From Candidatus Poseidoniaceae archaeon (GTDB lineage Archaea; Thermoplasmatota; Poseidoniia; Poseidoniales; Poseidoniaceae): DNA of 64,000 bases. The DNA lies in assembly GCA_943788295.1 (NCBI GenBank), contig CALSPS010000002.1, forward strand, positions 187,352 through 251,351. Direction: 5' to 3'. Both the position numbers and the translations under genes were made by a program. The notes below the pieces were generated by a model, which searched no databases, was not told where the DNA came from, and saw nothing but the letters and a program-made list of their open reading frames with translations. This document shows, piece after piece, positions 47,498 to 64,000 of this stretch; the first letter of the stretch is position 1, and every line of letters begins with the position of its first letter.

Positions 47498-47968
47498 TCA
47501 TTTTCGCCGATTCAAAGGCGGCCAGTTACGAAATCCCTTTGTGGACTCACGGTCAGCAAAGACGTGGATTCGAATGGCCTCGCCATCAATCACGATCGCA
47601 TCTTCGGCAGTGAGGCCTGGGCACTCTTCTTTGACTTCCTTCCATGACCGCTCGGTCGCCAAATTCTCGGACCACCATGGGAAGGCTGCACATTGTTGAG
47701 GGCGCACTTCGTAAATTGAGCAACGCTTTTCACCGTCAAGAAAAATGCACACATCATCGCTCGGTCGGCTTTGGAGGACATAGCGGCCATCCAGTGTTTT
47801 ACGGCAATCCCTCTCGAGCCATGCCTCCACCTCCATTTCATGGTGCAAAGCGATGCGTTCAGCATCTCGAATGGAGAGGTAGACAATCCCTCCTGGCTGA
47901 TCACAGCACCTGCCACAATTCGTCTGGCAGGAAAAGGGCACTCCGCCCATCCACCATGCGGCTTTCAT
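47498..47968 (-). CDS. YkgJ-family (UPF0153) zinc/iron-sulfur-binding protein
   Basis: CQTNCGRCCDQ is a CxxCGxCC motif, with a downstream Cys (CIFLDGEKRCSIYEVRPQQC). It overlaps the upstream gene by 4 nt. Confidence 0.55.
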   Translation of the reverse strand: MKAAWWMGGVPFSCQTNCGRCCDQPGGIVYLSIRDAERIALHHEMEVEAWLERDCRKTLDGRYVLQSRPSDDVCIFLDGEKRCSIYEVRPQQCAAFPWWSENLATERSWKEVKEECPGLTAEDAIVIDGEAIRIHVFADRESTKGFRNWPPLNRRK

Positions 47969-50025
47969 TCCTCTTCACCTTGAGCGCTCGAGGGAACAGC
48001 GTGAAGAGTAGCCAGTTTGATTGTACGGTGTTGTTCTGGGGTGTCTTCAAGCAGGTCCATCATGTCAATGTTCGCTGCATCAACGTCCCATTCACCTTCC
48101 GGTACGAAACTGTCCAGATCAGCCACTGGGTCTGAACGAGGGGTGCTTTTCTTTCTTCGACCGATGGTTCGCTTTTTCTTCACTTCGTCTTCCGTAAACG
48201 GAGGCAGTGGTTCTCGATCTGGATCGATCTCGACAAGTTGCTCTTCCAAATGCCTCAAATCATCAGCAATCTGAATCAACTCCTCGATTGACGCACCTGA
48301 TGTTTGTTCTGCCAAGGCCATCATTTTGTTTTCAAGGTCTTCAAGTTGAATCGAACTTTGCGCAAAGGCTTGTTCAAACGAACCGATTTGTTGGTCGATG
48401 CTCTCATCTAAATCTGTTAAAATTTCGGCAGCGGTTCCATAGTCTTGCTCTTCAATCCGACCGGTTCGTGCCACAAGATGCTCTTCTCGTTCGTGGAGAT
48501 CAAGGACGGAGGGGACTTTCAAATCCAAATCACGAAGTGCCGTTTTCATGTACGCTTCATGCCGAGATTGAGCGTTTTTTGCCATGGCTTGTGTGTCGAA
48601 TTCGGGGGGCGTGTAATCGTCTTCGCCAATGATTGGAAGCGTGGTGTGGATGTCAATTCCACCGATAGTATCATCGCTGTAAACAACATCAATGGCCTCA
48701 GCAATCAAGGTCGTCGCAATATCAGAAACGCGTTCTCTTTGGACGCTTGGCGCCGGATGTTGAGAGCGCACAGGTTCGCCCATCAAGACAGCAGCCACAT
48801 CGTCGCCATCAAGCAAATCTTGACCAGAACTGATGGCCAATGCTACCAAATCCAAATTGGCTTTAGTGGACCGCCACCCTCCTCCTTGGTGCAGGACAAT
48901 GCTTGCGAGTTGTCCATCGTCAAGCATCAGGCTTCGCTTGAGTGCAAGTTGCCTCGCATAGAGCACCATGCTGGTTGGTTTTGGGGCTTGAATGCGAACT
49001 GCAGCAGCGTTCTTGACCAAATCCCACAGTCTTGAAGCTGGCCAACGCTCTGGCTCAATGGTTGTGCTTAGCACGACATGAACGCCCATGTTGAGGGCGT
49101 AGTCAACCATTGTACCCAGCAGGGAAGCTGCTGTTGGATGGTCGGCCATAAGATGAGCATCATCGATCGCTAAAAGACGAGCTTGGGCGATTGCTTCCTG
49201 CCATCCTGCCGGCAGTTGGTCCAAGTGTTGTATGTCAGCAGAACCGAGCAGAAACACATCACCCTCTTGACGCCGAAGTATGCCTTGAGCGATGGCATGA
49301 AGCAAGTGGGACCGGCCAGTTTCATTCGGGCCTACCACGAGCAACGGGTTGAGTGACATGCCGGGGGAATCAACAACGGCTTCTGCTGCTTGAGTGGCTC
49401 TGAGGTTCTCTTCAACGGTGAACCATTGCTTGAAACTCATCTGTGATTCGGGCCGCAGTTTGATTGGCCATGGTGCATCAACCGGAGCGAGGGTAGCGTG
49501 ATGGTAAGCCGTGTTCACCTCGGGTGTGGCAAGGGCGTTCGGGAGTTCGTGAATGGTTCTCCCTCGTTGATCATCGAGGACGCTTGACCAAACAGGACGA
49601 CCGTCCATTTCCATTCCAACAAAAAAATCATCCTCGTCAACCGGGGCCCTTTGTTCATCAAACCGTTCTGCTGTCCGTTGCCTCAGTGTACGAAGACGAG
49701 ATGCCACAATCGAGGCAAGTGAGTCATCATCCTCGTTGAGCTGGAGGGCTGGTTGGTGGACTTTACTCCCTTTGCCAAGAACCGCATCGGCGATGATGTC
49801 GTAGGTTGGGCGCTCGACAACACCAACACGTTGCAACAAAGAGCCACTGCGTGAATCGGGCACTGCTTGCTTACCAAGCAAGCGGTTTAATCGTGATTTA
49901 GGCCGCTTTTGTGGTGCTTCGCTTGGCACCTTTTCAGCAGGAAGTTTGGTTTGTGCTCCCACTTCAGCAAGTCCTTTCTTGGCTTGAGCAATGGCGAAGT
50001 TGAGGTCTTCATTTCGCGAACTCAT
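47965..50025 (-). CDS. DnaA-homologous AAA+ protein (Hda/DnaA domain III-like) with degenerate Walker A, long N-terminal region and acidic coiled-coil C-terminus; no DnaA domain IV
   Basis: Residues 200-370 align motif-by-motif to DnaA domain III. FTVEENLRATQAAEAVVDSPGMSLNPLLVVGPNETGRSHLLHAIAQ compares with F..F..G.SN..A.AAA.AV...PG..[21 protein letters not shown]. Walker B is LLAIDDAHL (LLIDDIQFL), sensor I HVVLSTT (IVLTSD), and box VIII-like RIQAPKPTSMVLYARQ. The Walker-A Lys is replaced by Arg (GPNETGRS, 49309..49332). Confidence 0.6.
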   Translation of the reverse strand: MSSRNEDLNFAIAQAKKGLAEVGAQTKLPAEKVPSEAPQKRPKSRLNRLLGKQAVPDSRSGSLLQRVGVVERPTYDIIADAVLGKGSKVHQPALQLNEDDDSLASIVASRLRTLRQRTAERFDEQRAPVDEDDFFVGMEMDGRPVWSSVLDDQRGRTIHELPNALATPEVNTAYHHATLAPVDAPWPIKLRPESQMSFKQWFTVEENLRATQAAEAVVDSPGMSLNPLLVVGPNETGRSHLLHAIAQGILRRQEGDVFLLGSADIQHLDQLPAGWQEAIAQARLLAIDDAHLMADHPTAASLLGTMVDYALNMGVHVVLSTTIEPERWPASRLWDLVKNAAAVRIQAPKPTSMVLYARQLALKRSLMLDDGQLASIVLHQGGGWRSTKANLDLVALAISSGQDLLDGDDVAAVLMGEPVRSQHPAPSVQRERVSDIATTLIAEAIDVVYSDDTIGGIDIHTTLPIIGEDDYTPPEFDTQAMAKNAQSRHEAYMKTALRDLDLKVPSVLDLHEREEHLVARTGRIEEQDYGTAAEILTDLDESIDQQIGSFEQAFAQSSIQLEDLENKMMALAEQTSGASIEELIQIADDLRHLEEQLVEIDPDREPLPPFTEDEVKKKRTIGRRKKSTPRSDPVADLDSFVPEGEWDVDAANIDMMDLLEDTPEQHRTIKLATLHAVPSSAQGEEE

Positions 50026-51965
50026 GCTCCACCCTCCCTTTCTTTCCGCAGTCGCTCAAGATCTTCAATCTCCCAAGAACTCAATGAATCTTCAATAGAC
50101 GGAGGAGCCTGTTCACTCGAGGCGATTTCTCTTGGCAACTGTTTTGGTTGTGCTTCTGCCTCAACCCCGGGTCGGGCAGAAAGAGGTGTTAGCGCTGTTG
50201 AAGCGTTTGTTGGTTGTTTATTCTTAATCGCCTCGATTGGACTGGGCTGACTCTTGATGGATGGAAGGCTATGCTGGCGAGTTGAGGCATGCTGTTGGGC
50301 TGCGTCGCGAAGCGATCGACCATTGAATTTCCTTGGCTGGAATGTTTTGTTCACTGCAGCTTCTTGCCGTGCTTCATAGGTTGCTAACTGATGGGACAGT
50401 GCAACGGATGCTCGATGTGAGGTGGGTGGCTTGAATTCGGGTGAAGATTCAGGGGCATGGGCCACAGCAGCCTGGGTTTGGAATTGCGAATGCTGAGCGG
50501 CAGGTGCGTTCTTCTTCTTCCTTCTTTGAATCCGTTGTGGGGTTCTTGGTCCGCTAGGTTTGGTCGGTTGTTTGGCGATGGGGGTTGGCTCGGGCATCGC
50601 TTGAGGCTCAGGAGTTTGCGCTTCCCTGACTTTGGATTCAACAGGAGTCTGTATTGATGTTGGAATCTGCTGATCGATTTGAACTTCAGCTGGTTGAGCC
50701 ACTTCGGCCACGGTCATTGGCTCATTTGGAGGGGAGGGCCTTGGTTGTTGATCTTCAGCCCATGCTTGGATTTGTCCCTCTAATGCTGCAGTGGCTTGTT
50801 GACGTTCCTCGCTTGTCAACGGTTCTTCACCACCGATCATTGTCATCTCGCCTGCCTCTGAAGTTTGGACAGGTGAATGCTCAATGGCACGTTTCAACTG
50901 CTGTTCGATCCATTGACGTTCATCATCTGTTGGAGGGGCACACAACGGATGGTCTAGAAGAAGTTCTGGATCAAGCAGCCATTGTTCAACATCGCTTTGT
51001 TGAATCATCGAAAAGCACCGCTCTAAGCGGTGACGGGGTTCAAGTTCAAAGGCGTTCAAATCTGCAGTGGTAAGGAGCACATGATCATCCATTCGAACAC
51101 CGTCGACTGCGTCTCGCAGAAAATCGATTGTCGGCCCGTCACCGTTCATTCCAGCAAGGTATTCCACGCCTTCAAGAACGACCACAGCGCGCATGTTTTC
51201 CCATAAAAAAGCGTCAATTTTAGCCCTGACCTCTTGGAGTGTTGGTTGAATAGCCCGTGGATGGTTGCCTGTGCTGAGCCAATGGCATGCAGAAACTGGT
51301 AGGCCATGTTCGACGCTCAGCGAATCCACATCGTGTCGAGAGAGAACGAGCACGGGCCGCCCATGGTTCGCTAGGTGGCCTGCAAGGGTGAACACCTCAG
51401 ATGGGTCCAATGCATCGAGCATCAAAGCATCACCAGGATGGATCATTTTCTCGCTGCCTTGGTGCCGCCCCATGTAGGCTTGACTTCGTTGTTTGATCGC
51501 TTCGGGCGCATCCACAGTGACCTCGAGTTCAGGCAACCGTTCTTCGCGCCGCCAGCTGCCTTTTCGCAGGGTGACGTTTGACCACCACCGTTCGTCGACC
51601 AAGGGCTCGGCGGATGCCGCTTCCAAATGTAAAAAAGCGGTCGGATAAAGCGTTGAAACCCGTTGGGCTTCAGCAGCAGATAACTCGTGAACTGCGAGCA
51701 GAGTTTCCATTGGCATTGCATCATTTTCGATTTCCAGCAAAGCCTCGAGCCCAAACAGAAGAGCATCTGATTCGTGCATCGCCAACACGGGATGGCCTTC
51801 GATGAACAACACTTGGCCGATCCTTGGCATAGCATCCTTTGGTTTGCGTTCCGTTCGGATGTAGCCGGTCGTGGTGAGGCGTGCCATGTCCGAAGACAAA
51901 ATCCGCAAGGCATTGGGGTCGCCACGGCGTACTTCCGTGACATCTCCCTGCGGCAATTCGGTCAT
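50022..51965 (-). CDS. DUF835-like domain protein with long Pro/Gln/Ala-rich low-complexity C-terminal half
   Basis: The central region (aa ~180-315, nt 51020..51428) GRPVLVLSRHD...WLS...AIQPTLQEVRAKIDAFLWENMRAVVVLEGVEYLAGMNGDGPTIDFLRDAVDGVRMDDHVLLTTADLNAFE matches, from memory, the archaeal DUF835 pattern (LxxLxxIxxFxxxxxxxVVLLDGLEYLIxxNGFxxVLKFL). Assigned from memory only. It overlaps the downstream DnaA-like gene by 4 nt. Confidence 0.4.
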   Translation of the reverse strand: MTELPQGDVTEVRRGDPNALRILSSDMARLTTTGYIRTERKPKDAMPRIGQVLFIEGHPVLAMHESDALLFGLEALLEIENDAMPMETLLAVHELSAAEAQRVSTLYPTAFLHLEAASAEPLVDERWWSNVTLRKGSWRREERLPELEVTVDAPEAIKQRSQAYMGRHQGSEKMIHPGDALMLDALDPSEVFTLAGHLANHGRPVLVLSRHDVDSLSVEHGLPVSACHWLSTGNHPRAIQPTLQEVRAKIDAFLWENMRAVVVLEGVEYLAGMNGDGPTIDFLRDAVDGVRMDDHVLLTTADLNAFELEPRHRLERCFSMIQQSDVEQWLLDPELLLDHPLCAPPTDDERQWIEQQLKRAIEHSPVQTSEAGEMTMIGGEEPLTSEERQQATAALEGQIQAWAEDQQPRPSPPNEPMTVAEVAQPAEVQIDQQIPTSIQTPVESKVREAQTPEPQAMPEPTPIAKQPTKPSGPRTPQRIQRRKKKNAPAAQHSQFQTQAAVAHAPESSPEFKPPTSHRASVALSHQLATYEARQEAAVNKTFQPRKFNGRSLRDAAQQHASTRQHSLPSIKSQPSPIEAIKNKQPTNASTALTPLSARPGVEAEAQPKQLPREIASSEQAPPSIEDSLSSWEIEDLERLRKEREGGA

Positions 51966-53830: not shown

Positions 53831-55051
53831 TCAGATCAGGCCAAGCGTTGGTCCAACTTTTTCGAACAAGCGAAGCACTTCATCCAAGTCATCACGAGAA
53901 AGGCCGGCAGACATTTGTGTTCTGATCCGAGCCTTGTCACGAGCCACCATCGGGAATACGATTGCTCCAGCCATGACCCCTTCCTCGCCGAGCGCTCTTG
54001 TCATGGCCTTTGCAACACTTGAATCTCCACACATCACTGGTATGATCGGCGTGACAGATGAACCGGTATCGAAGCCGAGTGATTGCAATTCCTTTCTGAA
54101 ATAATTGGTGTTTTCCCACAACTTGGCATGGTGTTCGGGCTCTTCCATCAGGACCTCAACAGCCGCTTTTTGTGCGGCTGCGACGCCTGGCGGTTGTGAA
54201 CCGGAAAGCAACCATGAGCGCGAGTGATTCAATGCATGGGTTCGGGTCATTTCCGTACCTGCAAGAATACCTCCTTGAACACCAAGGGCCTTTGAGAATG
54301 AACCAGTTTCAAAGTCCACTTTTCCTTGAAGATTGAATTGAGCAACAATGCCCGCTCCTTTTTCCCCAAGAACCCCTTCTCCATGGCAATCATCAACATA
54401 GACCATAGCCCCGTATTCCTCTGCTAACGCTGTGACTTCATCGAGGGGAGCAATGTCGCCATCCATAGAAAACACACCATCGGTAATGATCAACTTCCGT
54501 TTTGCATCGTCGTGTGCTTTGAGGACAGCTTCAAGTTCTCCCATGTCATTGTGTGCATACACACCTCGACTGGCTTTCGTCAGGCGAACACCATCGATGA
54601 TGGACCCGTGATTCAGTTCATCACTGATGATCACATCTTGAGGGCCGGTGACAAGGGTAGGGATCAATCCTACGTTGACCGTGTATCCTGCCGAATAAAT
54701 CAAAGAGGCTTCAACGCCCTTGAATTCAGCAACTTTTCGTTCTGCCTCAAGGTGGATGTCCATGGTGCCTGCAATCGCACGAACGCTTCCGCTCCCTGCT
54801 CCATATTTTTCAGTGGCTTCAAGCATGGCTTGCTTGACCTTTGGATGGGTGGTGAGGTTGAGGTAATTGTTGGCCGAAAGCATGATCGTTGGTTTTCCAT
54901 CCATCCGACATCGAGGCTGATTTGGACTTTCCAATGTTGGCGGCTCCCACAACAGTGATTTGTCTGACAGTTCATCATAACGGGCTTTCATCCAAGACAT
55001 ATCACCGGGCATAGCATCGCCTCCGCCCGATGCGAACGAATCCAGATTCAA
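53831..55051 (-). CDS. kbl: Glycine C-acetyltransferase / 2-amino-3-ketobutyrate CoA ligase (AONS/KBL family)
   Basis: Colinear with E. coli Kbl from memory: NNYLNLTTHP (NNYLGLANHP), FSMDGDIAPL, DDCHGEG, TGSFSKALG (PLP Lys), and C-terminal ARIRTQMSAGLSRDDLDEV (QARIRTQMSAAHTPEQI). BioF is not fully excluded. Start uncertain (55051-54991). Confidence 0.75.
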   Translation of the reverse strand: MNLDSFASGGGDAMPGDMSWMKARYDELSDKSLLWEPPTLESPNQPRCRMDGKPTIMLSANNYLNLTTHPKVKQAMLEATEKYGAGSGSVRAIAGTMDIHLEAERKVAEFKGVEASLIYSAGYTVNVGLIPTLVTGPQDVIISDELNHGSIIDGVRLTKASRGVYAHNDMGELEAVLKAHDDAKRKLIITDGVFSMDGDIAPLDEVTALAEEYGAMVYVDDCHGEGVLGEKGAGIVAQFNLQGKVDFETGSFSKALGVQGGILAGTEMTRTHALNHSRSWLLSGSQPPGVAAAQKAAVEVLMEEPEHHAKLWENTNYFRKELQSLGFDTGSSVTPIIPVMCGDSSVAKAMTRALGEEGVMAGAIVFPMVARDKARIRTQMSAGLSRDDLDEVLRLFEKVGPTLGLI

Positions 55052-55121
55052 GTTCCTTTGGGAAGAACATTCTCGCCTCGTATGTTCGAACCATGCACCT
55101 CAAAAGGGAGGCGTCCGTCCC

Positions 55122-55595
55122 GTGGCCATGGAGTTGAGCGGAAAGGTCAGCAGCGGTCTAGGCCGGGCGCACGTGTTCATGGCTCAACCGCACTACCAAG
55201 AGCAATTCCGGGCTCTGCTTGGAAAAACGGCATGGCCGGGAACGCTCAATGTAACCGTTCACGGGACTGATTTGATCAACTATATTGCCTTAAGAAAGAA
55301 GTCAGGCATCGATACATTGGACGCGTCAACAGAGGACCGTGACGCTGCACTGAATGTCCCCGTCGGTTCTTTTGAGGCTCATCGAATCCGTGGTTTTCTA
55401 AGGGATGGTGTATCCTTTGGCGGTGCTACAGCATTCATAGCCGAATTCAAAACTCAATCTGGTACCATCGCATGTGCATTGCTTATCCCCGACTTGACCC
55501 GACACATCGACGTTGTCGAGGTCATTGCAGGAGCATGTTTGCGTGAAAAGTTCAACCTTGAAGACGATGCACTGGTCCAAATAAAGTTGGATTGA
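55122..55595 (+). CDS. ribK: CTP-dependent riboflavin kinase, archaeal type (DUF120/MJ0056 family)
   Basis: GKVSSGLGRAHVF...PGTLNV and the C-terminal LREKFNLEDDALVQIKL match MJ0056-type RibK (GEVVSGLGEGRYF...EGTLNL...LREQFNLKDGDVIKI). Confidence 0.75.
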   Translation: MAMELSGKVSSGLGRAHVFMAQPHYQEQFRALLGKTAWPGTLNVTVHGTDLINYIALRKKSGIDTLDASTEDRDAALNVPVGSFEAHRIRGFLRDGVSFGGATAFIAEFKTQSGTIACALLIPDLTRHIDVVEVIAGACLREKFNLEDDALVQIKLD

Positions 55596-55597
55596 TC

Positions 55598-56512
55598 TCA
55601 TCGATGACGAACGATGGGAAGTTCCCCTAACCTTGCCCACTCATTAAGGAGCAGGCTCTTTTGCTCATGGCGGGCAGCCTCTCTCCATCGCTTTCTCATC
55701 GTTCGCTCAACGGCTGGTCCAGCAGGAGGTGCTGAGAAACATTGCACATGAATGGGAGTTGCATCAAGAGGTAATTCATCCCAGTGCACACCCCACAAGA
55801 TCAACCAATCCGGTGGGGCCACTCCAAAGTCCGCAGGTGTATCCGCATCCTCAAGGGCAGCCTTCACCTCTGCTGGGTCAATTTCTCCAATGCACATTCT
55901 ATGCAGAGCCATCGCAGTGCGTCGGACTTGATTCCAAAGGAACGCTTCGCCGACAATTTCGAATCCTACCACCCGCTTATCGACCACCCAAGGGGTGCAA
56001 GAATAAATCGTTCGAATGGGGTTCTTTCCTTCTTCAAGCCGAGCAAAATTCGTTGCATCATACGTTCCTTCAAACATCTCCAACCAGTCGGTGAACACTT
56101 CGCCTGGGTGAGTCCAAAACTCGATGCCTTCAAGCCGGTAACGGTAAACCCGGTGAACGGCCATACGAGGGTTCCATGATTCATCGATTTCCTTCACATC
56201 GAGAAATGCGATGTCTTTTGGAAGCCTGTCATCAAGCGCCCGCACCATTTTTCGTGGCGTTAATGCTTGCCATAATTCCCTTTTTATTCGAACTACACCG
56301 CCGTTCAATCTGACATGAACACCAGCATCGGTTCTGCTCGAGAGCACAAGGTTGTGTTGATCTTCTTCCGGGTCAAGCCACTTTAAGCTCCGAAACACCC
56401 GGATGAGTTCGCCTTGTACAGTTTTCACATCCGGTTGAATCTGACTGCCATGATAAGCATCGCCAAGATAGCCAATTCGAAAGGCAAGGCGAACGGTGGT
56501 GCCGTCCGCCAT
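55598..56512 (-). CDS. truA: tRNA pseudouridine(38-40) synthase TruA
   Basis: RIGYLGDAYHGSQIQP (YdGt.f.GwQ.Q) and the catalytic SRTDAGVHV motif are present. Confidence 0.8.
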   Translation of the reverse strand: MADGTTVRLAFRIGYLGDAYHGSQIQPDVKTVQGELIRVFRSLKWLDPEEDQHNLVLSSRTDAGVHVRLNGGVVRIKRELWQALTPRKMVRALDDRLPKDIAFLDVKEIDESWNPRMAVHRVYRYRLEGIEFWTHPGEVFTDWLEMFEGTYDATNFARLEEGKNPIRTIYSCTPWVVDKRVVGFEIVGEAFLWNQVRRTAMALHRMCIGEIDPAEVKAALEDADTPADFGVAPPDWLILWGVHWDELPLDATPIHVQCFSAPPAGPAVERTMRKRWREAARHEQKSLLLNEWARLGELPIVRHR

Positions 56513-56521
56513 CTGCTCACC

Positions 56522-57043
56522 TCAAGCGTCTTCAGAGAGCATTTCAATGGCTTCTTCAGGAGAGTAACCGAGTCCACCAACAGCCCACATCAGGGCCTGC
56601 TTGAGCCAGGGTTGAACCATTGGGTTCTTCTTGGTAGGATCCATCACCTCGATGGCATCGACAATGTTTCGACTTGCATTGAACAAGACTTCATCGGTCG
56701 GGATGTCATTTAGTTCGAGTTTCTTTGCATACCGTTGGAATTCTTTGACCGCGACAGGTATGCGTCGGCATTCAAGGGCAAAAGTGGCGAAATCAGCAAT
56801 ATATTCCTCGTTTTCCTCATCGAGTTGCATTGCTTTTTTGTACGCCATCATGATCTTTCCCCCGGGAATGATGTCGTCTTGAGCTTCCATGTTCTTCATG
56901 TTGGCAAATTCTGCATACATGTGGTGAACTTGTGCGTTTGTCTTATTGGTTGACATTTTTGCGTCAAGGTCTGCAATGGCACCATCGAGGTCGCCATTAC
57001 GAAGCATTTCAATCGGGCCTTGGAGAAGTTCATCATCGCTCAT
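56522..57043 (-). CDS. Hypothetical helical protein
   Basis: 173 aa, acidic, helical repeat character. No motif. 9-nt gap to truA. Confidence 0.3.
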   Translation of the reverse strand: MSDDELLQGPIEMLRNGDLDGAIADLDAKMSTNKTNAQVHHMYAEFANMKNMEAQDDIIPGGKIMMAYKKAMQLDEENEEYIADFATFALECRRIPVAVKEFQRYAKKLELNDIPTDEVLFNASRNIVDAIEVMDPTKKNPMVQPWLKQALMWAVGGLGYSPEEAIEMLSEDA

Positions 57044-57107
57044 GGTTATCGCCTGTTTTGTTCGGGTGCGTTAGGGCTTTTGAATCACTCGTTTGAGCGT
57101 TTTCGAT

Positions 57108-58169
57108 TCAATCTTTGGAAGTGGTTTCAGAAATTGTTTTCTTCAAATCACTGAGGAGGTGGGATTGACTGTTTTTCTTGTGCATTTCATTCAACAATCC
57201 TTTGGCTTTTTCCCACTTTCGGATGTTGTACATGCAATGCTTTGGATCTGGACGTACGGTTCGGATGGTTCGTTGGTATGTCATGATGCCAATGAATGTT
57301 CGAATGAGGCCTTTGCCGGCTTTTTCGACTTTTGAATCGTTCTCATTTTCGCTTGTTCCTGGAATGCTATGCTTGACGACTGGAACGTTGCTTTCCTCGA
57401 CAATGCCTACGCCGGAATCGGTCAACACCGTAACGGTCGCAAAACCAAGCAGGGTGCCGGTTGGAGATCGAGCAACGACAACTTCTGAGATGCGATCGAA
57501 AAGAATTCGGCGATGGGAGCGTGAAAGCAAAAAGCTGTGTTCAAAGATGATAGCGTCGCTGGTGATGGCGTAATGGAAACTGCGTTGGTAGTAGTAAACT
57601 AAGGCCATGTACGCTGCAACAAATCCACCACCAAAGATGATGAAGTTGTAATTTGGTAGGTATCCGGTATTGCTGTCGTTCAACAGCCCGGTCATGGCGA
57701 TTAAATCATCCAACAAGACAAGGGTTGGTGCAAGCGAGACAATAAGGAGGCCAAAAGTCACCCATCGACCCGATGTCGAGACGTTCATCAACCGATTCAT
57801 CCAAGTGATGAACAACATGACTCCTGTCAGGCCAGCCGCACCGCTGGAGAAGAAGATGGTGGCGAGTAAGCCAACAAAGAAACTCTCGTTGTCTTTCCCG
57901 GGTTCAAACTCAAAAACCAAGTGAATGGCGAGCACAAGAAGGCCAAGCATGTACAGGTTGAGGAATGCAAAGGTGCTCGGCCGCTTTGTGAGCAAGACTT
58001 CCTCGCCGGCAATCAAGCGGAATTTCTTCGACAACTTCTCTTGTTCTGCAGCCATTTCCGCCGCTTGAGATGCTATTGGATCGACAACCGTTTCTTCTTC
58101 GGGGGTCGCCCCGGCCTCTGTGGATTCTTCGCTCATAGCAATCGCTCCATTCGTTTGTGGCGCAGACAA
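57108..58169 (-). CDS. Membrane protein with bacterial-PH (bPH_2/YdbT-like, DUF304) domain
   Basis: It has 4-5 TM helices. YAITSDAIIFEHSFLLSRSHRRILFDRISEVVV...GTLLGFATVTVLT resembles the bPH_2 membrane-flanked PH domain consensus. Confidence 0.45.
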   Translation of the reverse strand: MSAPQTNGAIAMSEESTEAGATPEEETVVDPIASQAAEMAAEQEKLSKKFRLIAGEEVLLTKRPSTFAFLNLYMLGLLVLAIHLVFEFEPGKDNESFFVGLLATIFFSSGAAGLTGVMLFITWMNRLMNVSTSGRWVTFGLLIVSLAPTLVLLDDLIAMTGLLNDSNTGYLPNYNFIIFGGGFVAAYMALVYYYQRSFHYAITSDAIIFEHSFLLSRSHRRILFDRISEVVVARSPTGTLLGFATVTVLTDSGVGIVEESNVPVVKHSIPGTSENENDSKVEKAGKGLIRTFIGIMTYQRTIRTVRPDPKHCMYNIRKWEKAKGLLNEMHKKNSQSHLLSDLKKTISETTSKD

Positions 58170-58238
58170 CCCAAATAAGTCCTTCCACGGTTGCGTCGAA
58201 AATGCATGGCCTCTCGGCTGTTTATCATGAATCGAAGT

Positions 58239-59444
58239 TCAGTGCAAAAAGCCCCAAGAATGTTCAGCATTGCCTCTCGCCCATGCATAGTCGGTTTCTT
58301 TTCGAACTCCATACTCGTCCATGATCCTTAATCGCTCGAGTTTCAGCGGATATTCATTGTATGTGAGGTGAGAGGTCATTCCTCCACGGGTTGGTTGATT
58401 GAAGGTCCAATGAGCGCGTTCGATTGCTTGAACTGTGAGTTCCATTGTTGTCCTGCCGTTCCACATTTTGATGTTGAACTTAGGCAAGGGTGCTCCTGGG
58501 TGGTGGGCATGTTTTCCTTCACTCATCTCCGAGCCCAATTTTTCAATCGTGATTCGATTGAACTTTTCACTCCGCTTGTGCTTGCCATCGTGGAAAAGAC
58601 CGCCTTGGGAAAGCCCCAAATGGCCAAAATCTCGACGTTTCCACGGACGATTGTCCCTTGCTGTGACAGTAAATGAGAGGTGAGGCATGAACCAGTCAAT
58701 GTAGGACCCATCATCGAGGTGAAGAACACCCCAATACCACGGGACTGAAGGGGCTTGGACACTCACCTTTTGGAAGTATGCAGTTCCTTTTACGACTTCA
58801 TCATCAAGGGTTCCTGAGGCCTTAGTGCCATGCAAACGTAGGATGTCATACCCCATGTTTCCAGCATAGGTTGCGGTTGCCTCCCTGGCCGTGGACATCG
58901 CTCCGTTCCAGGGGGTTAACTTGAGGCGCATTTCTTTGGGTACATTTGGATGGCTAGCCTCCTCATCGGTCGTTAGATTGAGCCAAAATTCACTCAAATC
59001 ACTCTTCAGGCCCATGCTTAGATCCTCCTCCAAAAGCGGCACCACTGCTCCGCCACCCTTACCCGAATTAGGATCGGCCGATGGCCACTTTGGGTGTGAA
59101 TCTGGCATGGCGACAATTCGGCAAATCCGTTTGATCACCGGCTCATGCATTTGTGTTCCATCGAACCACCATGCACAAACCATGCCATCAAGGGCCATGC
59201 CGTCGTGGTCGTCGAATCCTGGACGTCCTTGAGGGGTCCATGGAGTGCCACTGACTTCCACAAGAGGATTGTCTTTGGTCGACCACAGCACCATCAATTG
59301 GCGACCACTCGGCTTTCCATCAGGATCCTCGAGCATCACCAACCACCACCACCAATCCCATGTGAGATGGTGAAGAGGTGGCCTATTTTGTAGGGTCCAC
59401 ATCCCTGACAAATCACCAGCAAATGCAGTCATCTCATCGCTCAT
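58239..59444 (-). CDS. AttH/CrtC-like (hydroxyneurosporene synthase/lipocalin-like, COG5621) protein
   Basis: HHLTWDWWWWLVMLED resembles the EWWY motif near the N-terminus of the CrtC/AttH family. ~400 aa, beta-rich. It is the last gene of the ABC operon, with a 4-nt overlap. Confidence 0.4.
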   Translation of the reverse strand: MSDEMTAFAGDLSGMWTLQNRPPLHHLTWDWWWWLVMLEDPDGKPSGRQLMVLWSTKDNPLVEVSGTPWTPQGRPGFDDHDGMALDGMVCAWWFDGTQMHEPVIKRICRIVAMPDSHPKWPSADPNSGKGGGAVVPLLEEDLSMGLKSDLSEFWLNLTTDEEASHPNVPKEMRLKLTPWNGAMSTAREATATYAGNMGYDILRLHGTKASGTLDDEVVKGTAYFQKVSVQAPSVPWYWGVLHLDDGSYIDWFMPHLSFTVTARDNRPWKRRDFGHLGLSQGGLFHDGKHKRSEKFNRITIEKLGSEMSEGKHAHHPGAPLPKFNIKMWNGRTTMELTVQAIERAHWTFNQPTRGGMTSHLTYNEYPLKLERLRIMDEYGVRKETDYAWARGNAEHSWGFLH

Positions 59445-60751
59445 TCAATTTCCTTCCCTTTGAAAATTGCGCCACCAATAAACCACAAGACTGCGCCTTG
59501 AATCAACAAAACAATCGTGGCTATAATCGATGAAACCAAGCCTGTTGAACCAACACCTGGCCTAGAATAGAAGAAATCAAGCGCCAGAGCGCTGGTCTGA
59601 ATCGATCCAAAGTCGTCGTTGAATGAGGTTCCTTGCAAGAGGAATAAGTCCATGTTCGGCCATACGAGCATGGCAGCAGAATCAACGATCATCAAGGCCC
59701 AACCAATCACGGAAAACCGTAAAATTGACGCATCAGGGGCACCCATCGATAACAGGCACATGCCAAGTTCCCATGCTGCAAATGGGATGGCGAGAACGAT
59801 TCCGTATCTCCACATGACGCCTAATGCGCAAAACAGCATGCCATAGACGAGTGATGCCATCATTGTTGCAAAAACGATAGCAAGCCAAACGCCAAGGTCT
59901 GCAAATCTAAAGAAGCCTTCACTTGGACCCATGAAGCCAGAAATTAAGGCAAAGAGGAGGCCGATGCTGATGAAGTACGGCCAAACAATACCAAGATAGC
60001 CAAGAATTCGATACAGGAACACTTCCGTCCGAGCAATCGGCTTGGCCAACATAAAGTGCATCGTTCCTGCTGTCATTTCGTCACGAATCAATCCAGTGGC
60101 CAAGAACAATGGACAAAACAATCCGAGTAAGAGCACGAACCCCATTTTGCCCATGCCGAGCACAAAGGCCATGTGAGTTGCTTCCAATGCGTAGGCTGCA
60201 TCATCAGGATCTTCGTCCACATTGATGTCGGGATTTGCACTCCATTCCCCGTTGAATCGGTTTTGGACAAGTAAAACATCGCACTCAATGTCGTTGTCAT
60301 TTGTGTCTTTTCGCGATGATGTACCATCGTAATTGTAACAATCACCATCGTCATCAAATCCCGTGGATTGATAATTTGAGGTTCCGTCAAAGACGATGTC
60401 GAAGCCATCTTCATCGATGTAATTTGATGCAGGCTCCGGGGCTATGGGTGGGTCGAGAAGTCCGGGGTGCGAATCTGCCATGTAAGGGTCGGTGCCCCAT
60501 TTGAGTTCTTGTCCCGTTGGATAGCCATCGTTGTCGAGGTCCAAGCTGTCACCGTCATTATCAACCGATTCAAAACCTGTTGCCATCACGTCGATGTAGA
60601 TCAGCATCACAAGTGAAATGGCGACAAGGCCAACGCCAAGAACGACCCAAGTTGAGGTTTTGGTGCGGTATTGACGCATCGTAAATTCTGTGATGGCAGC
60701 CGCCTTTCGGTCAAGGGCGCGATAAATCGTGTTGGGCTTCGATTCCATCAC
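59441..60751 (-). CDS. ABC-2 type transporter permease with large extracytoplasmic Asp-rich (Ca-binding-like) loop
   Basis: The first TM is followed by a ~120-aa loop containing DNDGDSLDLDNDGYPTG ... DDDGDCYNYDG ... DNDIECD (DxDxDG-type repeats). About six further TM helices follow. The GTG/ATG start overlaps the upstream ATPase stop. Confidence 0.55.
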   Translation of the reverse strand: MMESKPNTIYRALDRKAAAITEFTMRQYRTKTSTWVVLGVGLVAISLVMLIYIDVMATGFESVDNDGDSLDLDNDGYPTGQELKWGTDPYMADSHPGLLDPPIAPEPASNYIDEDGFDIVFDGTSNYQSTGFDDDGDCYNYDGTSSRKDTNDNDIECDVLLVQNRFNGEWSANPDINVDEDPDDAAYALEATHMAFVLGMGKMGFVLLLGLFCPLFLATGLIRDEMTAGTMHFMLAKPIARTEVFLYRILGYLGIVWPYFISIGLLFALISGFMGPSEGFFRFADLGVWLAIVFATMMASLVYGMLFCALGVMWRYGIVLAIPFAAWELGMCLLSMGAPDASILRFSVIGWALMIVDSAAMLVWPNMDLFLLQGTSFNDDFGSIQTSALALDFFYSRPGVGSTGLVSSIIATIVLLIQGAVLWFIGGAIFKGKEIE

Positions 60752-61740
60752 AACGTCCCTCCGCTGGTAAGATAGCCAAGAATCGATGCTAAGTCATCAT
60801 CCGGGTTATCGATGCTGTGGATTCGATGGTTGTTGTCAACGATCACCGAAGGGAGTTTTGCATGTATTGCACCCAAGTTATGAGTTTGAATTGAGAGGTT
60901 GTTCTTGGTTGGGAATGAAATACCTGAAACATCATCCAAATCGATGACATCCTTTGCTAATGCTTTGGCGTCGTCCGCTTCAATGGTGATGCGGTGAGGG
61001 ATTTGGTCGAGTTTTTCACGTATGGCGTGAAGGTTACCGAGTGCTAAAAGTCGTCCATTGTGAAGGATGATAATTTGCTCAGTGATTCGTTCGATTTCCT
61101 GAAGGATGTGGCTGCTGACGATGATGGTTCGCCCCATTCGTCCCAATTCACGAATGACATTCATGATGGTTGTTCTTGCCAATGGGTCACACCCTTGGAG
61201 TGGTTCATCCAAAATGATCAGTTCTGGATCGTTGACGAGAGCATGCGCAATTTTTGCTCGTTGTCTCATCCCCTTGGAGTATTGCCCAATTTTCTTGTGT
61301 GCAACATCAGCAAGCCCAACGAATTTCAACACTCGGTCCGCCTCAACCATCGCTTCTGCTCGGGTTAGGCCGTTTAGCCTCGCAAAAGTGGAGACGAATT
61401 GATGGGCCGTCATCCAGTCGTACATTTTCTCGTGTTCGGGTACAAACCCTACTCTGGCGTACGGTGCTGGGTTTTTCCACGGGTCGGTGCCAAATAAGCG
61501 AATCTTACCTTGACTTGGTTTGAGTTTACCCATGAGCAATTTGAACATGGTCGATTTACCTGCCCCGTTCATGCCAAGCACGCCTGTTACGCCGCCATTA
61601 AGGGCAAGTGTGATGTTCGAGAGTGCAAAGATTCGCCCGTATGATTTCGAAACGCCCTCAAGCAGAACAGCCGGTGCCGTTGTGTCTGGCCGCCATGCCT
61701 CAGTCTGGCCTTTCCCTTCTTGATCAAAATCTGGCATCAT
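60748..61740 (-). CDS. ABC transporter ATP-binding protein
   Basis: Walker A GMNGAGKST, Q-loop, ABC signature YSKGMRQRAKIA, Walker B LIILDEP, and H-loop SSHIL are present. Start set at ATG 61738-61740, giving an ATGA overlap with the upstream permease stop. The track ORF to 61893 is over-extended. Confidence 0.85.
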   Translation of the reverse strand: MMPDFDQEGKGQTEAWRPDTTAPAVLLEGVSKSYGRIFALSNITLALNGGVTGVLGMNGAGKSTMFKLLMGKLKPSQGKIRLFGTDPWKNPAPYARVGFVPEHEKMYDWMTAHQFVSTFARLNGLTRAEAMVEADRVLKFVGLADVAHKKIGQYSKGMRQRAKIAHALVNDPELIILDEPLQGCDPLARTTIMNVIRELGRMGRTIIVSSHILQEIERITEQIIILHNGRLLALGNLHAIREKLDQIPHRITIEADDAKALAKDVIDLDDVSGISFPTKNNLSIQTHNLGAIHAKLPSVIVDNNHRIHSIDNPDDDLASILGYLTSGGTL

Positions 61741-62780
61741 TCTCGAGTCACCTCCATCGATGATACTCGCGCACTCAGTGTGTAGAGCGCTATGGCATTC
61801 ATTGCAATCACGGAGGCCAACGACCACGTCCAAGAATATTGGTCGTAAGTGGGCTGGGTCCCAATCAGCGTTTGCCCAACATGCGCCATGCAATCATAGG
61901 GCGAAAGGAGGTAGAGAATCTCACGATCGAACAATGTTGAAACCAAAACAGCGAGCACTTTTGTTCCCAAGACGATGGACAGAAGTCCAATTCCGGGGAA
62001 AAATTTACCCTTGGAAACACTTGACAAGGCTAGGCCTATGCTGGTGTAGGTGAACACAAGCATCACGCCCGAAAGGAAGGCTGCGAGAAACAAGGGGAAG
62101 GTATCCATAATCCAAGCCCAGCCGCGACCAAGGGCAATGATTTCAGCGAAGTAATACAAGGTCAGGCTAAGAAGCACGATGATGGATTGAATGACGGCAA
62201 CGGAGATAAATTTCATTCCAACGTAATCGAATCGGGTGATCGGGCGAGAAAAGTAAAGCGCCGATGTGCCATGTTGCCTGTCTTCAGAAATGACGCTACC
62301 GACCAATAATGCGGCAATGATTGGGTAATAGAGGACATTTCTTGGAAAGAAACCAAGCACATGGCCGTACAAGTTATCCCTGCTGACCCCCCAAAGTTGG
62401 TGCAGTGTGCTTTCACCGATCAGACCTGAGATGAGCGTCAATCCAGCATTGCTCAATGAAGCAATGAACACGACCAGAATAAACAGGCGCGTTGGCATGC
62501 CCCATGGGCGGTGTCCCTTCTTGAAAATTCCAAGCAAGTGATGGCGTAAAATCGCCCAGTTTCTCATCCATCGAGGGTTGAGTTCCCCGTTCCACGGTTT
62601 GTATTCTTGCGAGAAGATCTCTCCGCCAGCCGCTGGCGTGTTGGCCACTGGCGTGCTGAGGTCCTCATCGCCTGCTGTCGATCCCCAAGCAGCATCCATT
62701 CGCCCTTGGCCCGTGACTGGGGCAGCTGCGTCGAATTGGACAGGAGGTGCATCTTGGCCCAAAGGTGGCTCTTCAGTCAA
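61737..62780 (-). CDS. ABC-2 type transporter permease
   Basis: Six TM helices after a low-complexity N-terminus. The TTG start at 62780 overlaps the upstream ATPase stop (TTGA). An alternative ATG is at 62702. Confidence 0.55.
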   Translation of the reverse strand: MTEEPPLGQDAPPVQFDAAAPVTGQGRMDAAWGSTAGDEDLSTPVANTPAAGGEIFSQEYKPWNGELNPRWMRNWAILRHHLLGIFKKGHRPWGMPTRLFILVVFIASLSNAGLTLISGLIGESTLHQLWGVSRDNLYGHVLGFFPRNVLYYPIIAALLVGSVISEDRQHGTSALYFSRPITRFDYVGMKFISVAVIQSIIVLLSLTLYYFAEIIALGRGWAWIMDTFPLFLAAFLSGVMLVFTYTSIGLALSSVSKGKFFPGIGLLSIVLGTKVLAVLVSTLFDREILYLLSPYDCMAHVGQTLIGTQPTYDQYSWTWSLASVIAMNAIALYTLSARVSSMEVTRE

Positions 62781-63805
62781 GCTCCGCCACCTCCCATGTG
62801 GGCGGGTGCGTCCACCTTTCGTGCAAGGGCGGGTGAGGCAAGCAAGTCTTCGCTTGACTTCACGTCATAGCCTAGGTTTTCCATGATGACCAAAAATAAG
62901 TCCTCAAGTGATGCTTCATATTCGTGCATTCGTCGAACTTGAGCGCCTGTTTCAGCAGCACACCTCAAGATCCGGGTTGACGTGTCCTCACCGGTGTGTG
63001 CGATTCGCATGACGCGACCTTCGCGTCGCACCGTGAGTCCATCTGCATGCAATGCCTGTTCGAGGCGAGTCGCCCCACCCCACACGTGAATCTCGATTTC
63101 ACGGTCAATGGCTTTGAGATCTTCAATGGCGCCTTGGGCAGCAAGCTTCCCCTTGTGGAGAAGGACAATATTGTCGCACACTCGCTCCACGTCATCCATG
63201 AGATGGGACGCCATCAATACAGAGCGGTTTCCAGATTGAACGGTCGTTGTAAGGGTTTGAATCATGAATTCTCTGGCCTTTGCATCCAAACCGTTTGAGG
63301 GTTCATCAGCGATGATCAGTTCTGGGTCATGGATAAGGGCGCAGGCTAACTTTGTGGCTTGCTTCATGCCAGTGGAAAAACTCCCAATGTTACGGTATCG
63401 TTGCTCTCCAATGCCTACGTATTGAAGTGACTCGTGAGCGCGTGCGAGGGCGATGGTTGGATTCATACCCAACAATTCACCAGAGTATCGAACTTGGTGG
63501 ATTGCATCCATATCGGGGTTGAGTGCATCGTATTCAGGCATGTAACCAATTCGTGCTCGGATTGCATCGCCTTCGGTGCGGATATCATGCCCAAGAACAG
63601 TTCCCTCGCCCTCCGTGGCTTGGATCAAGCCAAGGATGGTTTTTAGGAAGGTCGATTTGCCAGCTCCGTTCGGTCCTAGGAGGCCAGTAGCACCCTTTTT
63701 GACAGCCAAATTTAGATTGTCAAGGGCCACATGAGGGCCGTACGATTTAGTGAGGTTTGTTGTTTTGATAATCAGTTCATCCATACCAAAAGCCCCCCTC
63801 ATCAA
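62777..63805 (-). CDS. ABC transporter ATP-binding protein
   Basis: Walker A GPNGAGKST, signature FSTGMKQATKLA, Walker B LIIADEP, and H-loop ASHLM are present. The likely start is MDELIIK at 63784, preceded by GAGGGGGG. Confidence 0.85.
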   Translation of the reverse strand: MMRGAFGMDELIIKTTNLTKSYGPHVALDNLNLAVKKGATGLLGPNGAGKSTFLKTILGLIQATEGEGTVLGHDIRTEGDAIRARIGYMPEYDALNPDMDAIHQVRYSGELLGMNPTIALARAHESLQYVGIGEQRYRNIGSFSTGMKQATKLACALIHDPELIIADEPSNGLDAKAREFMIQTLTTTVQSGNRSVLMASHLMDDVERVCDNIVLLHKGKLAAQGAIEDLKAIDREIEIHVWGGATRLEQALHADGLTVRREGRVMRIAHTGEDTSTRILRCAAETGAQVRRMHEYEASLEDLFLVIMENLGYDVKSSEDLLASPALARKVDAPAHMGGGGA

Positions 63806-63871
63806 AAACGACGTAAGCGACGGACCTTCAATGCTACCACGTTTTGTGGTCGATTAAAGTGGACTACTGGG

Positions 63872-64000
63872 CTATGCCGCCACGGGTTTTAACGGCAATT
63901 CCTTTCTTGAATCCTTGGAATTCATCTGCGGTGCTGTTGGCGAGCCCATGTCCGAGGAGGTCGCCTTTCTGATTGACGATGAGGCAAGTTTGTGCTGGGC
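63872..64000 (-). CDS. Partial ORF of unknown function (C-terminal 42 codons, continues beyond the window)
   Basis: Open minus-strand frame ...QHKLASSSIRKATSSDMGSPTAPQMNSKDSRKELPLKPVAA ending with TAG at 63872-63874. No motif. It could be non-coding leader. Confidence 0.15.
   Translation of the reverse strand, partial: AQHKLASSSIRKATSSDMGSPTAPQMNSKDSRKELPLKPVAA

Follow-up and report, generated by a model that had tools for sequence, protein, structure and literature searches.

Does a soluble protein that is encoded at the end of a transporter operon work together with this transporter, and on which kind of molecule would the two then act? This question is raised by a locus of Marine Group II (MGII) archaea, which are uncultured and the dominant, most abundant archaea of the ocean surface. 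The locus is located on the minus strand of a 64,000-nt stretch of DNA from a Candidatus Poseidoniaceae archaeon (assembly GCA_943788295.1, contig CALSPS010000002.1, positions 187,352 to 251,351), which is called the window in the following and to which all coordinates without a locus handle refer. It contains genes for two ATP-binding cassette (ABC) ATPases (A1 and A2), two ABC-2 permeases (P1 and P2) and a protein here named X. An original prediction, made from the DNA sequence, had described it as a five-gene unit with an overlap at every junction, composed of a tandemly duplicated ATPase/permease pair and an AttH/CrtC-like protein. In this study the five genes were found to be kept together throughout the class Poseidoniia, and X is, according to its structure model, a protein with the AttH-like fold. 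Our tentative reading, to which we give somewhat less than an even chance, is that X modifies an isoprenoid lipid, which the ABC-2 transporter(s) then export or flip in its modified form.

Organization of the Five-Gene Unit

The minus strand carries five consecutive open reading frames (ORFs) in the order A1-P1-A2-P2-X, and with the revised start of A1 the unit spans positions 58239-63784 (Table 1). Overlaps of 1-4 nt are present at all four gene junctions. On the coding strand, the TTG start codon of P1 overlaps the TGA stop codon of A1 by 4 nt (gcTTGActg), P1 and A2 overlap by 4 nt (ATGA) or 1 nt (TGATG) within gaATGATGcc, A2 and P2 by 4 nt (GTGA) or 1 nt within ttGTGATGga, and P2 and X by 4 nt within gaATGAgc. 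The approximately 27 other same-strand neighbor pairs of the window served as a baseline and included only two clear 4-nt overlaps, both in an unrelated gene trio at 47498-51965; the usual spacers between these other pairs are 6-130 nt long. The density of overlaps in the five-gene unit is well above this baseline and is more than chance. Together with the conservation in relatives described below, the ORFs and the junction sequences bear out the predicted five-gene unit.

As orthologues of A1 align only from residue 8-10 and a Shine-Dalgarno-like run, GAGGGGGG, precedes the ATG at 63784, translation of A1 probably starts at this ATG rather than at the TTG at 63805, which would give a protein of 335 aa. 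The unit consequently ends at 63784 and not at 63805.

Conservation in Poseidoniia

The survey of relatives combined tblastn searches on contigs encoding X homologues with loci obtained by scanning a single genome for each GTDB species, and the counts of gene order cover approximately 75 Poseidoniales/Poseidoniia loci with enough flanking sequence. Every such locus, from Poseidoniaceae and Thalassarchaeaceae to deeper relatives, exhibited the order A1-P1-A2-P2-X, which is kept down to an X identity of 37-42% (L006, L008 and L075). The operon is hence not split in related genomes; a split was an outcome that, according to the original prediction, would refute it. The best-matching genome, a Candidatus Poseidoniales metagenome-assembled genome (MAG; L073), has 97% X identity, and a locus labelled Poseidoniaceae (L011) shares 88%. 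As seen from the loci encoding X homologues, the operon is a core feature of the class Poseidoniia, i.e., of MGII and its close relatives.

The spacing of the genes is conserved as well. A1 and P1 are spaced by -4 nt in 38/60 and by -1 nt in 9/60 relatives, with P1 starting from an ATG at -4 in most of them. For P1/A2 a spacing of -4 or -1 was observed in 62/64 cases and for A2/P2 a spacing of -1 or -4 in 60/68. P2 and X are separated by -4 nt in 23/75, by -1 nt in 16/75 and by +9 nt in 22/75 loci; overall, 69 of the 75 loci fall within -4 to +10 nt.

Such an arrangement could also have been frozen by descent in a streamlined genome. X would then be a functionally independent cytoplasmic enzyme that is merely co-transcribed with, or adjacent to, the transporter genes, and the collinear blocks and overlaps would be inherited relics. 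We regard this explanation as unlikely but as one to be taken seriously. A neighborhood of 15-20 kb, including housekeeping genes (archaeosine tRNA-guanine transglycosylase (TGT), TruA and Suf), is collinear across the order, 4-nt overlaps also occur between other genes of the window, and elsewhere the homologues of X are encoded without neighboring ABC-2 genes. However, the housekeeping neighbors lie 20-80 nt apart, whereas nearly all loci place X at -4, -1 or +9 nt from P2, and while the gene content downstream varies, with the bPH_2 gene being lost in some MGIIb, the order A1-P1-A2-P2-X never breaks. Moreover, a fold for hydrophobic ligands beside a lipid-exporter-like exporter is a coherent pairing, for which there is a bacterial precedent (PMC2954199).

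One of the surveyed records, the single-cell assembly JAOMAZ010000023.1 (L065), is titled "Deltaproteobacteria bacterium AH-558-G13" and has the P2-X-bPH-TPR-TruA arrangement typical of Poseidoniales, with an X of 48% identity; it is probably a mislabelled or contaminated record.

Protein X Has an AttH-Like Fold but Forms a Separate Sequence Family

Searches of X against Pfam and NCBIfam yielded no match, apart from a spurious Kdo match at E 0.019. The same is true for its relatives: ten distant full-length ones exhibited no AttH/CrtC-related Pfam match, and none of 50 members of a diverse X alignment matched PF07143, PF09410 or any AttH-related model at E <= 1. Searching PDB sequences with X, by single sequence or by profile, gave nothing meaningful. 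X is therefore not a member of the CrtC/AttH sequence family as described by PF07143, PF09410 (DUF2006) and related models. The original prediction had made its case dependent on a hidden Markov model (HMM) match of the 401-aa protein to PF07143 or COG5621, and at this level it falls by its own rule. The 484 close homologues of X include named ones that are labelled as hypothetical proteins of Euryarchaeota or Poseidoniales MAGs, and a profile search over 1.84 billion cluster representatives (50% identity clusters) returned 275 matches of the X family at E <= 0.001.

A different picture emerges at the level of the fold. The AlphaFold2 model of X is confident (predicted local distance difference test score, 84.5; predicted template modelling score, 0.87) and all-beta. 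Over both barrels it can be superposed on solved members of the AttH-like fold of SCOP, which consists of two orthogonally packed lipocalin-like beta barrels, and it stands clearly apart from other beta-barrel folds; in Foldseek AttH ranked first and the same set of matches was returned. Judged by this model, X is an AttH-like double-barrel protein which belongs to a separate sequence family absent from Pfam and NCBIfam. The designation AttH/CrtC-like thus holds for the fold (AlphaFold2 and Foldseek), but not for the sequence. As the hydropathy profile of X exhibits neither a signal-like N-terminus nor any hydrophobic or transmembrane segment, X is predicted to be cytoplasmic. Lacking an export signal, it would be located on the side on which ABC-2 exporters load their substrates.

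A number of residues are invariant or nearly invariant among X homologues, even at identities as low as 18-30%: W29, W31, W32, Q49, M51, W54, W92, D95, Y223, Q225, W236, W238, Y362, E364, N392, E394 and W397. They are located in predicted strands and are often paired at positions i and i+2 (W29/W31, Y223/Q225, W236/W238, Y362/E364 and N392/E394). In CrtC, the residues H239-x-W241 and Y266-x-D268 are essential (PMC4717167). The pairs W236-x-W238, Y362-x-E364 and N392-x-E394 of X are reminiscent of these at the level of the pattern; the acidic residues of X are Glu and not Asp, and the spacing of the pairs differs from that in CrtC.

Instead of being an enzyme, X might be an adaptor for lipids or other hydrophobic ligands that loads or regulates the exporter, as a cytoplasmic counterpart of the lipid-transport role proposed for AttH/DUF2006 proteins. 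We consider this improbable. The invariance of E364, E394, D95, Q225 and Y362, paired with aromatic residues and retained at 18-30% identity, fits a catalytic site better than a greasy binding pocket, and the homologues of X in other archaea function without an adjacent transporter.

A link between AttH and an ABC transporter is known from the att locus of Agrobacterium, and in bacteria AttH is usually taken to be an exported protein. The structure paper on the Nitrosomonas protein NE1406 (PDB 2ich) described AttH/DUF2006 proteins as being genomically associated, with high confidence, with ABC systems including the ATP-binding protein LolD, and a role in lipid transport was proposed for them (PMC2954199). 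The genetic link to bacterial ABC transporters which the original prediction invoked is thus real (PMC2954199), but the analogy with the att locus is loose, as the partner here is of the ABC-2 type and X has no export signal. What the archaeal operon and the bacterial systems share is only the theme of an AttH-fold protein beside an ABC system. X does not belong to PF09410 or PF07143, it has no signal peptide or transmembrane segment, unlike the exported bacterial proteins, and it is encoded beside two ATPase/permease pairs of the ABC-2 type (type V) instead of a LolD-type system. The combination that characterizes att-type loci, an exported AttH protein together with a LolD/MacB-type ABC transporter, is not found here. 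In addition, among the loci with X homologues examined, the linkage of X to an ABC-2 system is confined to one archaeal class.

The ABC-2 Transporter(s)

The four remaining genes are ordinary members of known families, as had been predicted. A1 and A2 are ABC ATPases which match PF00005 with 96 bits (E 3.7e-27) and 97.6 bits (E 1.2e-27), respectively (gathering cutoff 25). Both contain the complete set of motifs, namely Walker A (GPNGAGKS in A1, GMNGAGKS in A2), signature (STGMKQ, SKGMRQ), Walker B with its Glu (LIIADE, LIILDE) and the H-loop His (ASH, SSH), all intact. A1 includes a C-terminal DrrA1-3_C-like domain (PF13732 at E 3e-4) and matches the drrA subfamily of NCBIfam (E 2e-59), under the cutoff of that model. 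Taken together, the best NCBIfam models for A1 and A2 are DrrA, GldA and NodI, with no equivalog cutoff being reached. The closest solved nucleotide-binding domains to A2 are those of the lipid exporters ABCA7/1/4/3, followed by NosF and Rv1218c.

P1 and P2 are polytopic, are encoded beside an ATPase and match PF12679 (ABC2_membrane_2) above its cutoff of 27.2 bits (39.6 bits for P1 and 31.5 bits for P2), which confirms their assignment as ABC-2 permeases. For P1, a weak match to GldF was found in NCBIfam, and the nearest solved chain is PmtD (E 0.0046). Its hydropathy profile exhibits at least four hydrophobic segments and no large outside loop. P1 also has a hydrophilic, Pro/Ala/Gly-rich N-terminal extension of approximately 95 aa (residues 1-95; 62500-62780) in front of its first transmembrane segment, and as its orthologues align from residue 1 this extension is conserved.

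Large outside loops after the first transmembrane segment are common in ABC-2 and ABCA transporters. Judged by hydropathy, P2 is the only one of the two permeases with such a loop. It has approximately six hydrophobic segments, and an Asp/Cys-rich loop of approximately 150 aa (aa ~54-203; 60140-60590) separates the first (aa 35-53) from the remaining ones. The loop resembles a thrombospondin type-3 repeat (TSP3_bac, E 0.058; motifs DNDGD, DEDG and DDDGDC) and is probably outward-facing and calcium-binding. Its length, compared in L006, L008, L052, L059, L067 and L072, varies sharply by clade, from ~100 aa in the deepest relatives and ~150 aa in MGIIa to ~290-340 aa in MGIIb. The P2 loop may be a surface domain that binds calcium and changes in a lineage-specific manner. 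Compared with other ABC-2 and ABCA exporters, this Asp/Cys-rich, TSP3-like and length-variable loop is specific to the Poseidoniia lineage.

A recent tandem duplication of an ATPase/permease pair was considered and rejected. The nucleotide-binding domains of A1 and A2 share 37% identity, the BLASTP similarity of P1 and P2 is not significant (E 0.61), and the only DNA repeat between the pairs is a 48-nt segment with 71% identity in the Walker A region. Each ABC gene furthermore has its own orthologue, 58-96% identical, across the order. According to these comparisons, A1/P1 and A2/P2 are old paralogous pairs, and any duplication predates Poseidoniia. The description as a tandem duplication was therefore misleading, and to the question posed along with it, whether the ATPases are recent duplicates or distinct subfamilies, the answer is that they are not recent. 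The transporter is either one A1-A2-P1-P2 heterotetramer or consists of two homodimeric transporters as in the case of pmtABCD; the near-universal P1/A2 overlap fits stoichiometric co-production and does not decide between the two.

The closest architectural precedent is the staphylococcal exporter of phenol-soluble modulins, pmtABCD, whose operon has the same alternation of ATPase and permease genes and which comprises two separate transporters with different roles (PMC9974410; see also PMC7527219). Apart from the gene order the similarity is weak: the NCBIfam scores for PmtA, PmtC and PmtD (110, 103 and 18.9 bits) are far below the respective cutoffs of 350, 375 and 220. The staphylococcal system, a bacterial toxin system, also lacks a fifth gene for an AttH-fold protein and its substrates are peptides. 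Among other ABC-2 systems, the ATPases score best against ABCA7/1/4/3, NosF and the DrrA and GldA models, and the permeases belong to PF12679. Unlike NosFY and GldAFG systems, however, the operon contains no NosD/NosL or GldG partner, and no equivalog cutoff was reached. An anti-phage defense system was rejected as well: the only PADLOC matches were generic ABC-ATPase cross-matches of A1 and A2, while P1, P2, X and the downstream genes had none.

Homologues of X Outside Poseidoniia

Outside Poseidoniia, approximately 20 distinct loci with X homologues (24-34% X identity) were examined, which come from other Thermoplasmata, Bathyarchaeia, Aenigmatarchaeota and unassigned metagenome contigs. A scan of metagenomes with distant-only X sequences yielded 13 loci, 10 of which were of the Poseidoniales type. 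Three of the non-Poseidoniia loci place X next to genes for isoprenoid metabolism. In L010 (2530-6805), a gene of the geranylgeranyl reductase (GGR) family follows the X homologue after 16 nt on the same strand, and a squalene-synthase-like gene is located two genes upstream. A digeranylgeranylglycerophospholipid-reductase-like gene lies directly downstream of the X homologue, in convergent orientation, in L100 (374-2740), and in L088 (7069-9044) a UbiA prenyltransferase is encoded 60 nt upstream on the same strand. The three X homologues concerned are distant from each other (29-32% identity) as well as from X of the window (24-30%), so the association with isoprenoid genes arose or persisted in separate lineages. 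Two GGR adjacencies among ~20 loci would be expected by chance with a probability of ~1/1000, which is a rough estimate on a small sample and not a computed statistic. A further candidate, an isopentenyl phosphate kinase beside the X homologue of L108, had to be discarded as the gene encodes an archaeal UMP kinase.

Three further loci show other neighbors. On the short contig L107 (2-2019), a gene for a DrrA-like ABC ATPase lies upstream of an X homologue with 26% identity, at a distance of 135 nt and without an intervening permease gene; this is the only ABC gene seen beside X outside Poseidoniia, and a single case is within chance expectation. In Bathyarchaeia, a 363-aa protein is encoded upstream of the X homologue in two loci (L084:3413-4504 and L085:284-1375) and is 88% identical between them. 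It is not a paralogue of X, as it exhibits no similarity to X, and it has no Pfam match either.

These neighbors also bear on the idea of a detoxification or efflux system, in which X would hydrate or sequester exogenous lipophiles (e.g., algal terpenoids or prenylated metabolites) or membrane-active amphipathic molecules and the ABC-2 transporter(s) would expel them. Analogies can be drawn with detoxification by kievitone hydratase and with self-protection by PmtCD or DrrAB. Nevertheless, all sampled Poseidoniia loci with sufficient flanking sequence carry the operon at the same place between housekeeping genes, which makes it look like a core function rather than an accessory resistance, and the Pmt and DrrA model matches are far below the family cutoffs. 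The GGR and UbiA neighbors of distant X homologues point instead to endogenous lipid chemistry. A role in detoxification therefore appears rather doubtful to us.

A Possible Role in the Modification and Export of Isoprenoid Lipids

Our favored reading connects the fold of X with isoprenoid chemistry. Among proteins of this fold, the characterized hydratases CrtC (PMC4717167, PMC3145076) and kievitone hydratase (PMC5805349) hydrate a double bond of an isoprene unit. In a 2025 preprint, the archaeal AttH-like protein Hgs was shown to make hydroxylated glycerol dialkyl glycerol tetraethers, its substrates being tetraethers that the radical-SAM enzyme Ted has desaturated (bioRxiv 10.1101/2025.10.20.683597). 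The substrate of X would be a hydrophobic isoprenoid, such as a membrane-lipid chain, a polyprenol or a carotenoid-like molecule, which X would modify in the cytoplasm or on the inner, cytoplasmic side of the membrane. The likeliest chemistry would be an acid-catalyzed addition to an isoprene C=C bond, i.e., hydration or cyclization, as in CrtC, kievitone hydratase and Hgs. The ABC-2 transporter(s), produced in fixed proportion through translational coupling, would then carry this product outward, into the outer leaflet or onto the cell surface, with the acidic loop of P2 facing the outside. That X is physically or functionally coupled to the transporter, that it is an enzyme acting on an isoprenoid and that transport is outward we infer from several lines of evidence: the conserved overlaps, the lipid-exporter-like ATPases, the isoprenoid hydratases of the same fold, the GGR and UbiA neighbors of distant homologues and the predicted location of X on the loading side. 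Together they suggest such a function.

The relation to the known isoprenoid hydratases, Hgs included, is seen at the level of the fold, and X exhibits no HMM similarity to CrtC or kievitone hydratase (7a0q). To our knowledge, there is also no case of a hydratase being coupled to an ABC exporter. No carotenoid genes were found flanking the operon. An Hgs such as GBSed_1000338311 would be recognized by a gene overlapping the B12 radical-SAM desaturase gene ted (bioRxiv 10.1101/2025.10.20.683597); no radical-SAM gene was found beside X among the flanking genes that were annotated or scanned with Pfam. Homologues of Hgs are described mainly, or almost exclusively, from Methanobacteriota and Bathyarchaeota, and the text of the preprint does not include Poseidoniales or Marine Group II (bioRxiv 10.1101/2025.10.20.683597).

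Several points weigh against the proposed modification and export of an isoprenoid lipid. An ABC-2 pair is located beside X in 0 of the ~20 loci outside Poseidoniia, where most neighbors are unrelated (peptidases, an MFS transporter, an alcohol dehydrogenase and a UMP kinase), and the association with isoprenoid genes concerns 3 of these ~20 loci. Several AttH-fold proteins are not hydratases, as for example Diels-Alderases and the lyase, or have no known catalysis, as AttH itself. The likeness of X to a characterized active site is one of residue pattern, the substrates of ABC-2 systems are very diverse, and all support for the proposed function comes from sequence comparison and a predicted structure. 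Furthermore, the wider block of SufCBD, NifU, archaeosine TGT, the operon, bPH_2, a TPR-like gene and TruA is collinear across the order, so that shared gene order is in itself no proof of a common function; stronger arguments come from how closely the five operon genes are spaced and from the fact that precisely this set never varies.

A more far-reaching version of the proposal is that X founds a new archaeal family of AttH-fold isoprenoid-chain hydratases or cyclases, with an MGII membrane lipid or polyprenol being hydroxylated or modified in another way and then flipped or exported by a dedicated, co-translated ABC-2 machine. In this full form we consider it a long shot.

Flanking Genes and Further Features of the Window

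The gene upstream of the operon encodes the archaeosine TGT, whose C-terminal end terminates at 63866-63864. The 79-nt spacer between its stop codon (TAG, 63866-63864) and the start codon of A1 includes the sequence TTTAAT (63858-63853), which resembles an archaeal TATA box and is a promoter candidate. Scans for bacterial-type promoters and terminators remained at background level, no Rfam match to an RNA element or riboswitch was obtained in 55000-64000 at E <= 1, and a search for DNA repeats in the region gave nothing notable besides the similarity of the Walker A regions.

Downstream of the operon, nearly all Poseidoniales loci contain genes for a bPH_2 membrane protein, a 173-aa TPR-like protein (56522-57043 in the window) and TruA (55598-56512), all on the minus strand in the window. 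The gap between X and the bPH_2 gene is typically 59-79 nt in relatives. The bPH_2 gene follows X in most loci and is missing there in five MGIIb loci (L056, L057, L059, L060 and L064); it is probably not a core part of the unit.

The second run of 4-nt overlaps in the window, the trio at 47498-51965 on the minus strand, encodes a DUF835 protein (647 aa), a 686-aa protein with a DnaA-like ATPase domain and a CxxCxxCC zinc/iron-chelating protein (156 aa). This trio is syntenic in L001-L003.

Table 1. Coordinates of the operon genes and of associated features in the window.
Feature	Position	Strand	Remarks
A1, ABC ATPase, DrrA/ABCA-like subfamily	62777-63784	-	335 aa (342 aa if from TTG at 63805)
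P1, ABC-2 permease	61737-62780	-	347 aa; TTG start overlapping A1 stop
A2, second ABC ATPase	60748-61740	-	330 aa; longest ORF reaches 61893
P2, second ABC-2 permease	59441-60751	-	436 aa
X, soluble protein, AttH-like double beta-barrel fold (predicted)	58239-59444	-	401 aa; uncharacterized archaeal family
Shine-Dalgarno-like run GAGGGGGG	63793-63800	-	from sequence; 8 nt upstream of ATG at 63784
Candidate archaeal TATA-like box TTTAAT	63853-63858	-	resemblance to consensus, from sequence
bPH_2 membrane protein, next gene downstream	57108-58169	-	PF03703 E 1.8e-7; 69-nt gap after X

Implications for Marine Group II Archaea

The membrane lipid composition of MGII, and hence their contribution to sedimentary lipid proxies, is unresolved (PMC8473941, PMC7291766). 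The operon joins a fold which is now known to hydroxylate archaeal tetraethers (Hgs; bioRxiv 10.1101/2025.10.20.683597) to ABC transporters that resemble lipid exporters. With the lipids of MGII being unresolved and an AttH-fold lipid hydroxylase having been shown in other archaea, the operon is a reasonable candidate for lipidomics after heterologous expression. Three aspects make it notable: an archaeal AttH-fold family of 275 cluster representatives that is not covered by Pfam or NCBIfam can now be assigned a fold, X is attached in a fixed and translationally coupled manner to a double ABC-2 system throughout Poseidoniia, and there are independent hints of an isoprenoid-lipid context for X elsewhere. 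If the coupling to the transporter is incidental, a "hypothetical protein" would still gain a useful annotation as an AttH-fold protein with an isoprenoid-linked context in other archaea. If X is indeed a hydratase or cyclase whose product is flipped by the adjacent transporter(s), the operon would be the first module of enzyme and flippase for archaeal lipids and would provide a handle on the lipidome of MGII and its contribution to biomarkers.

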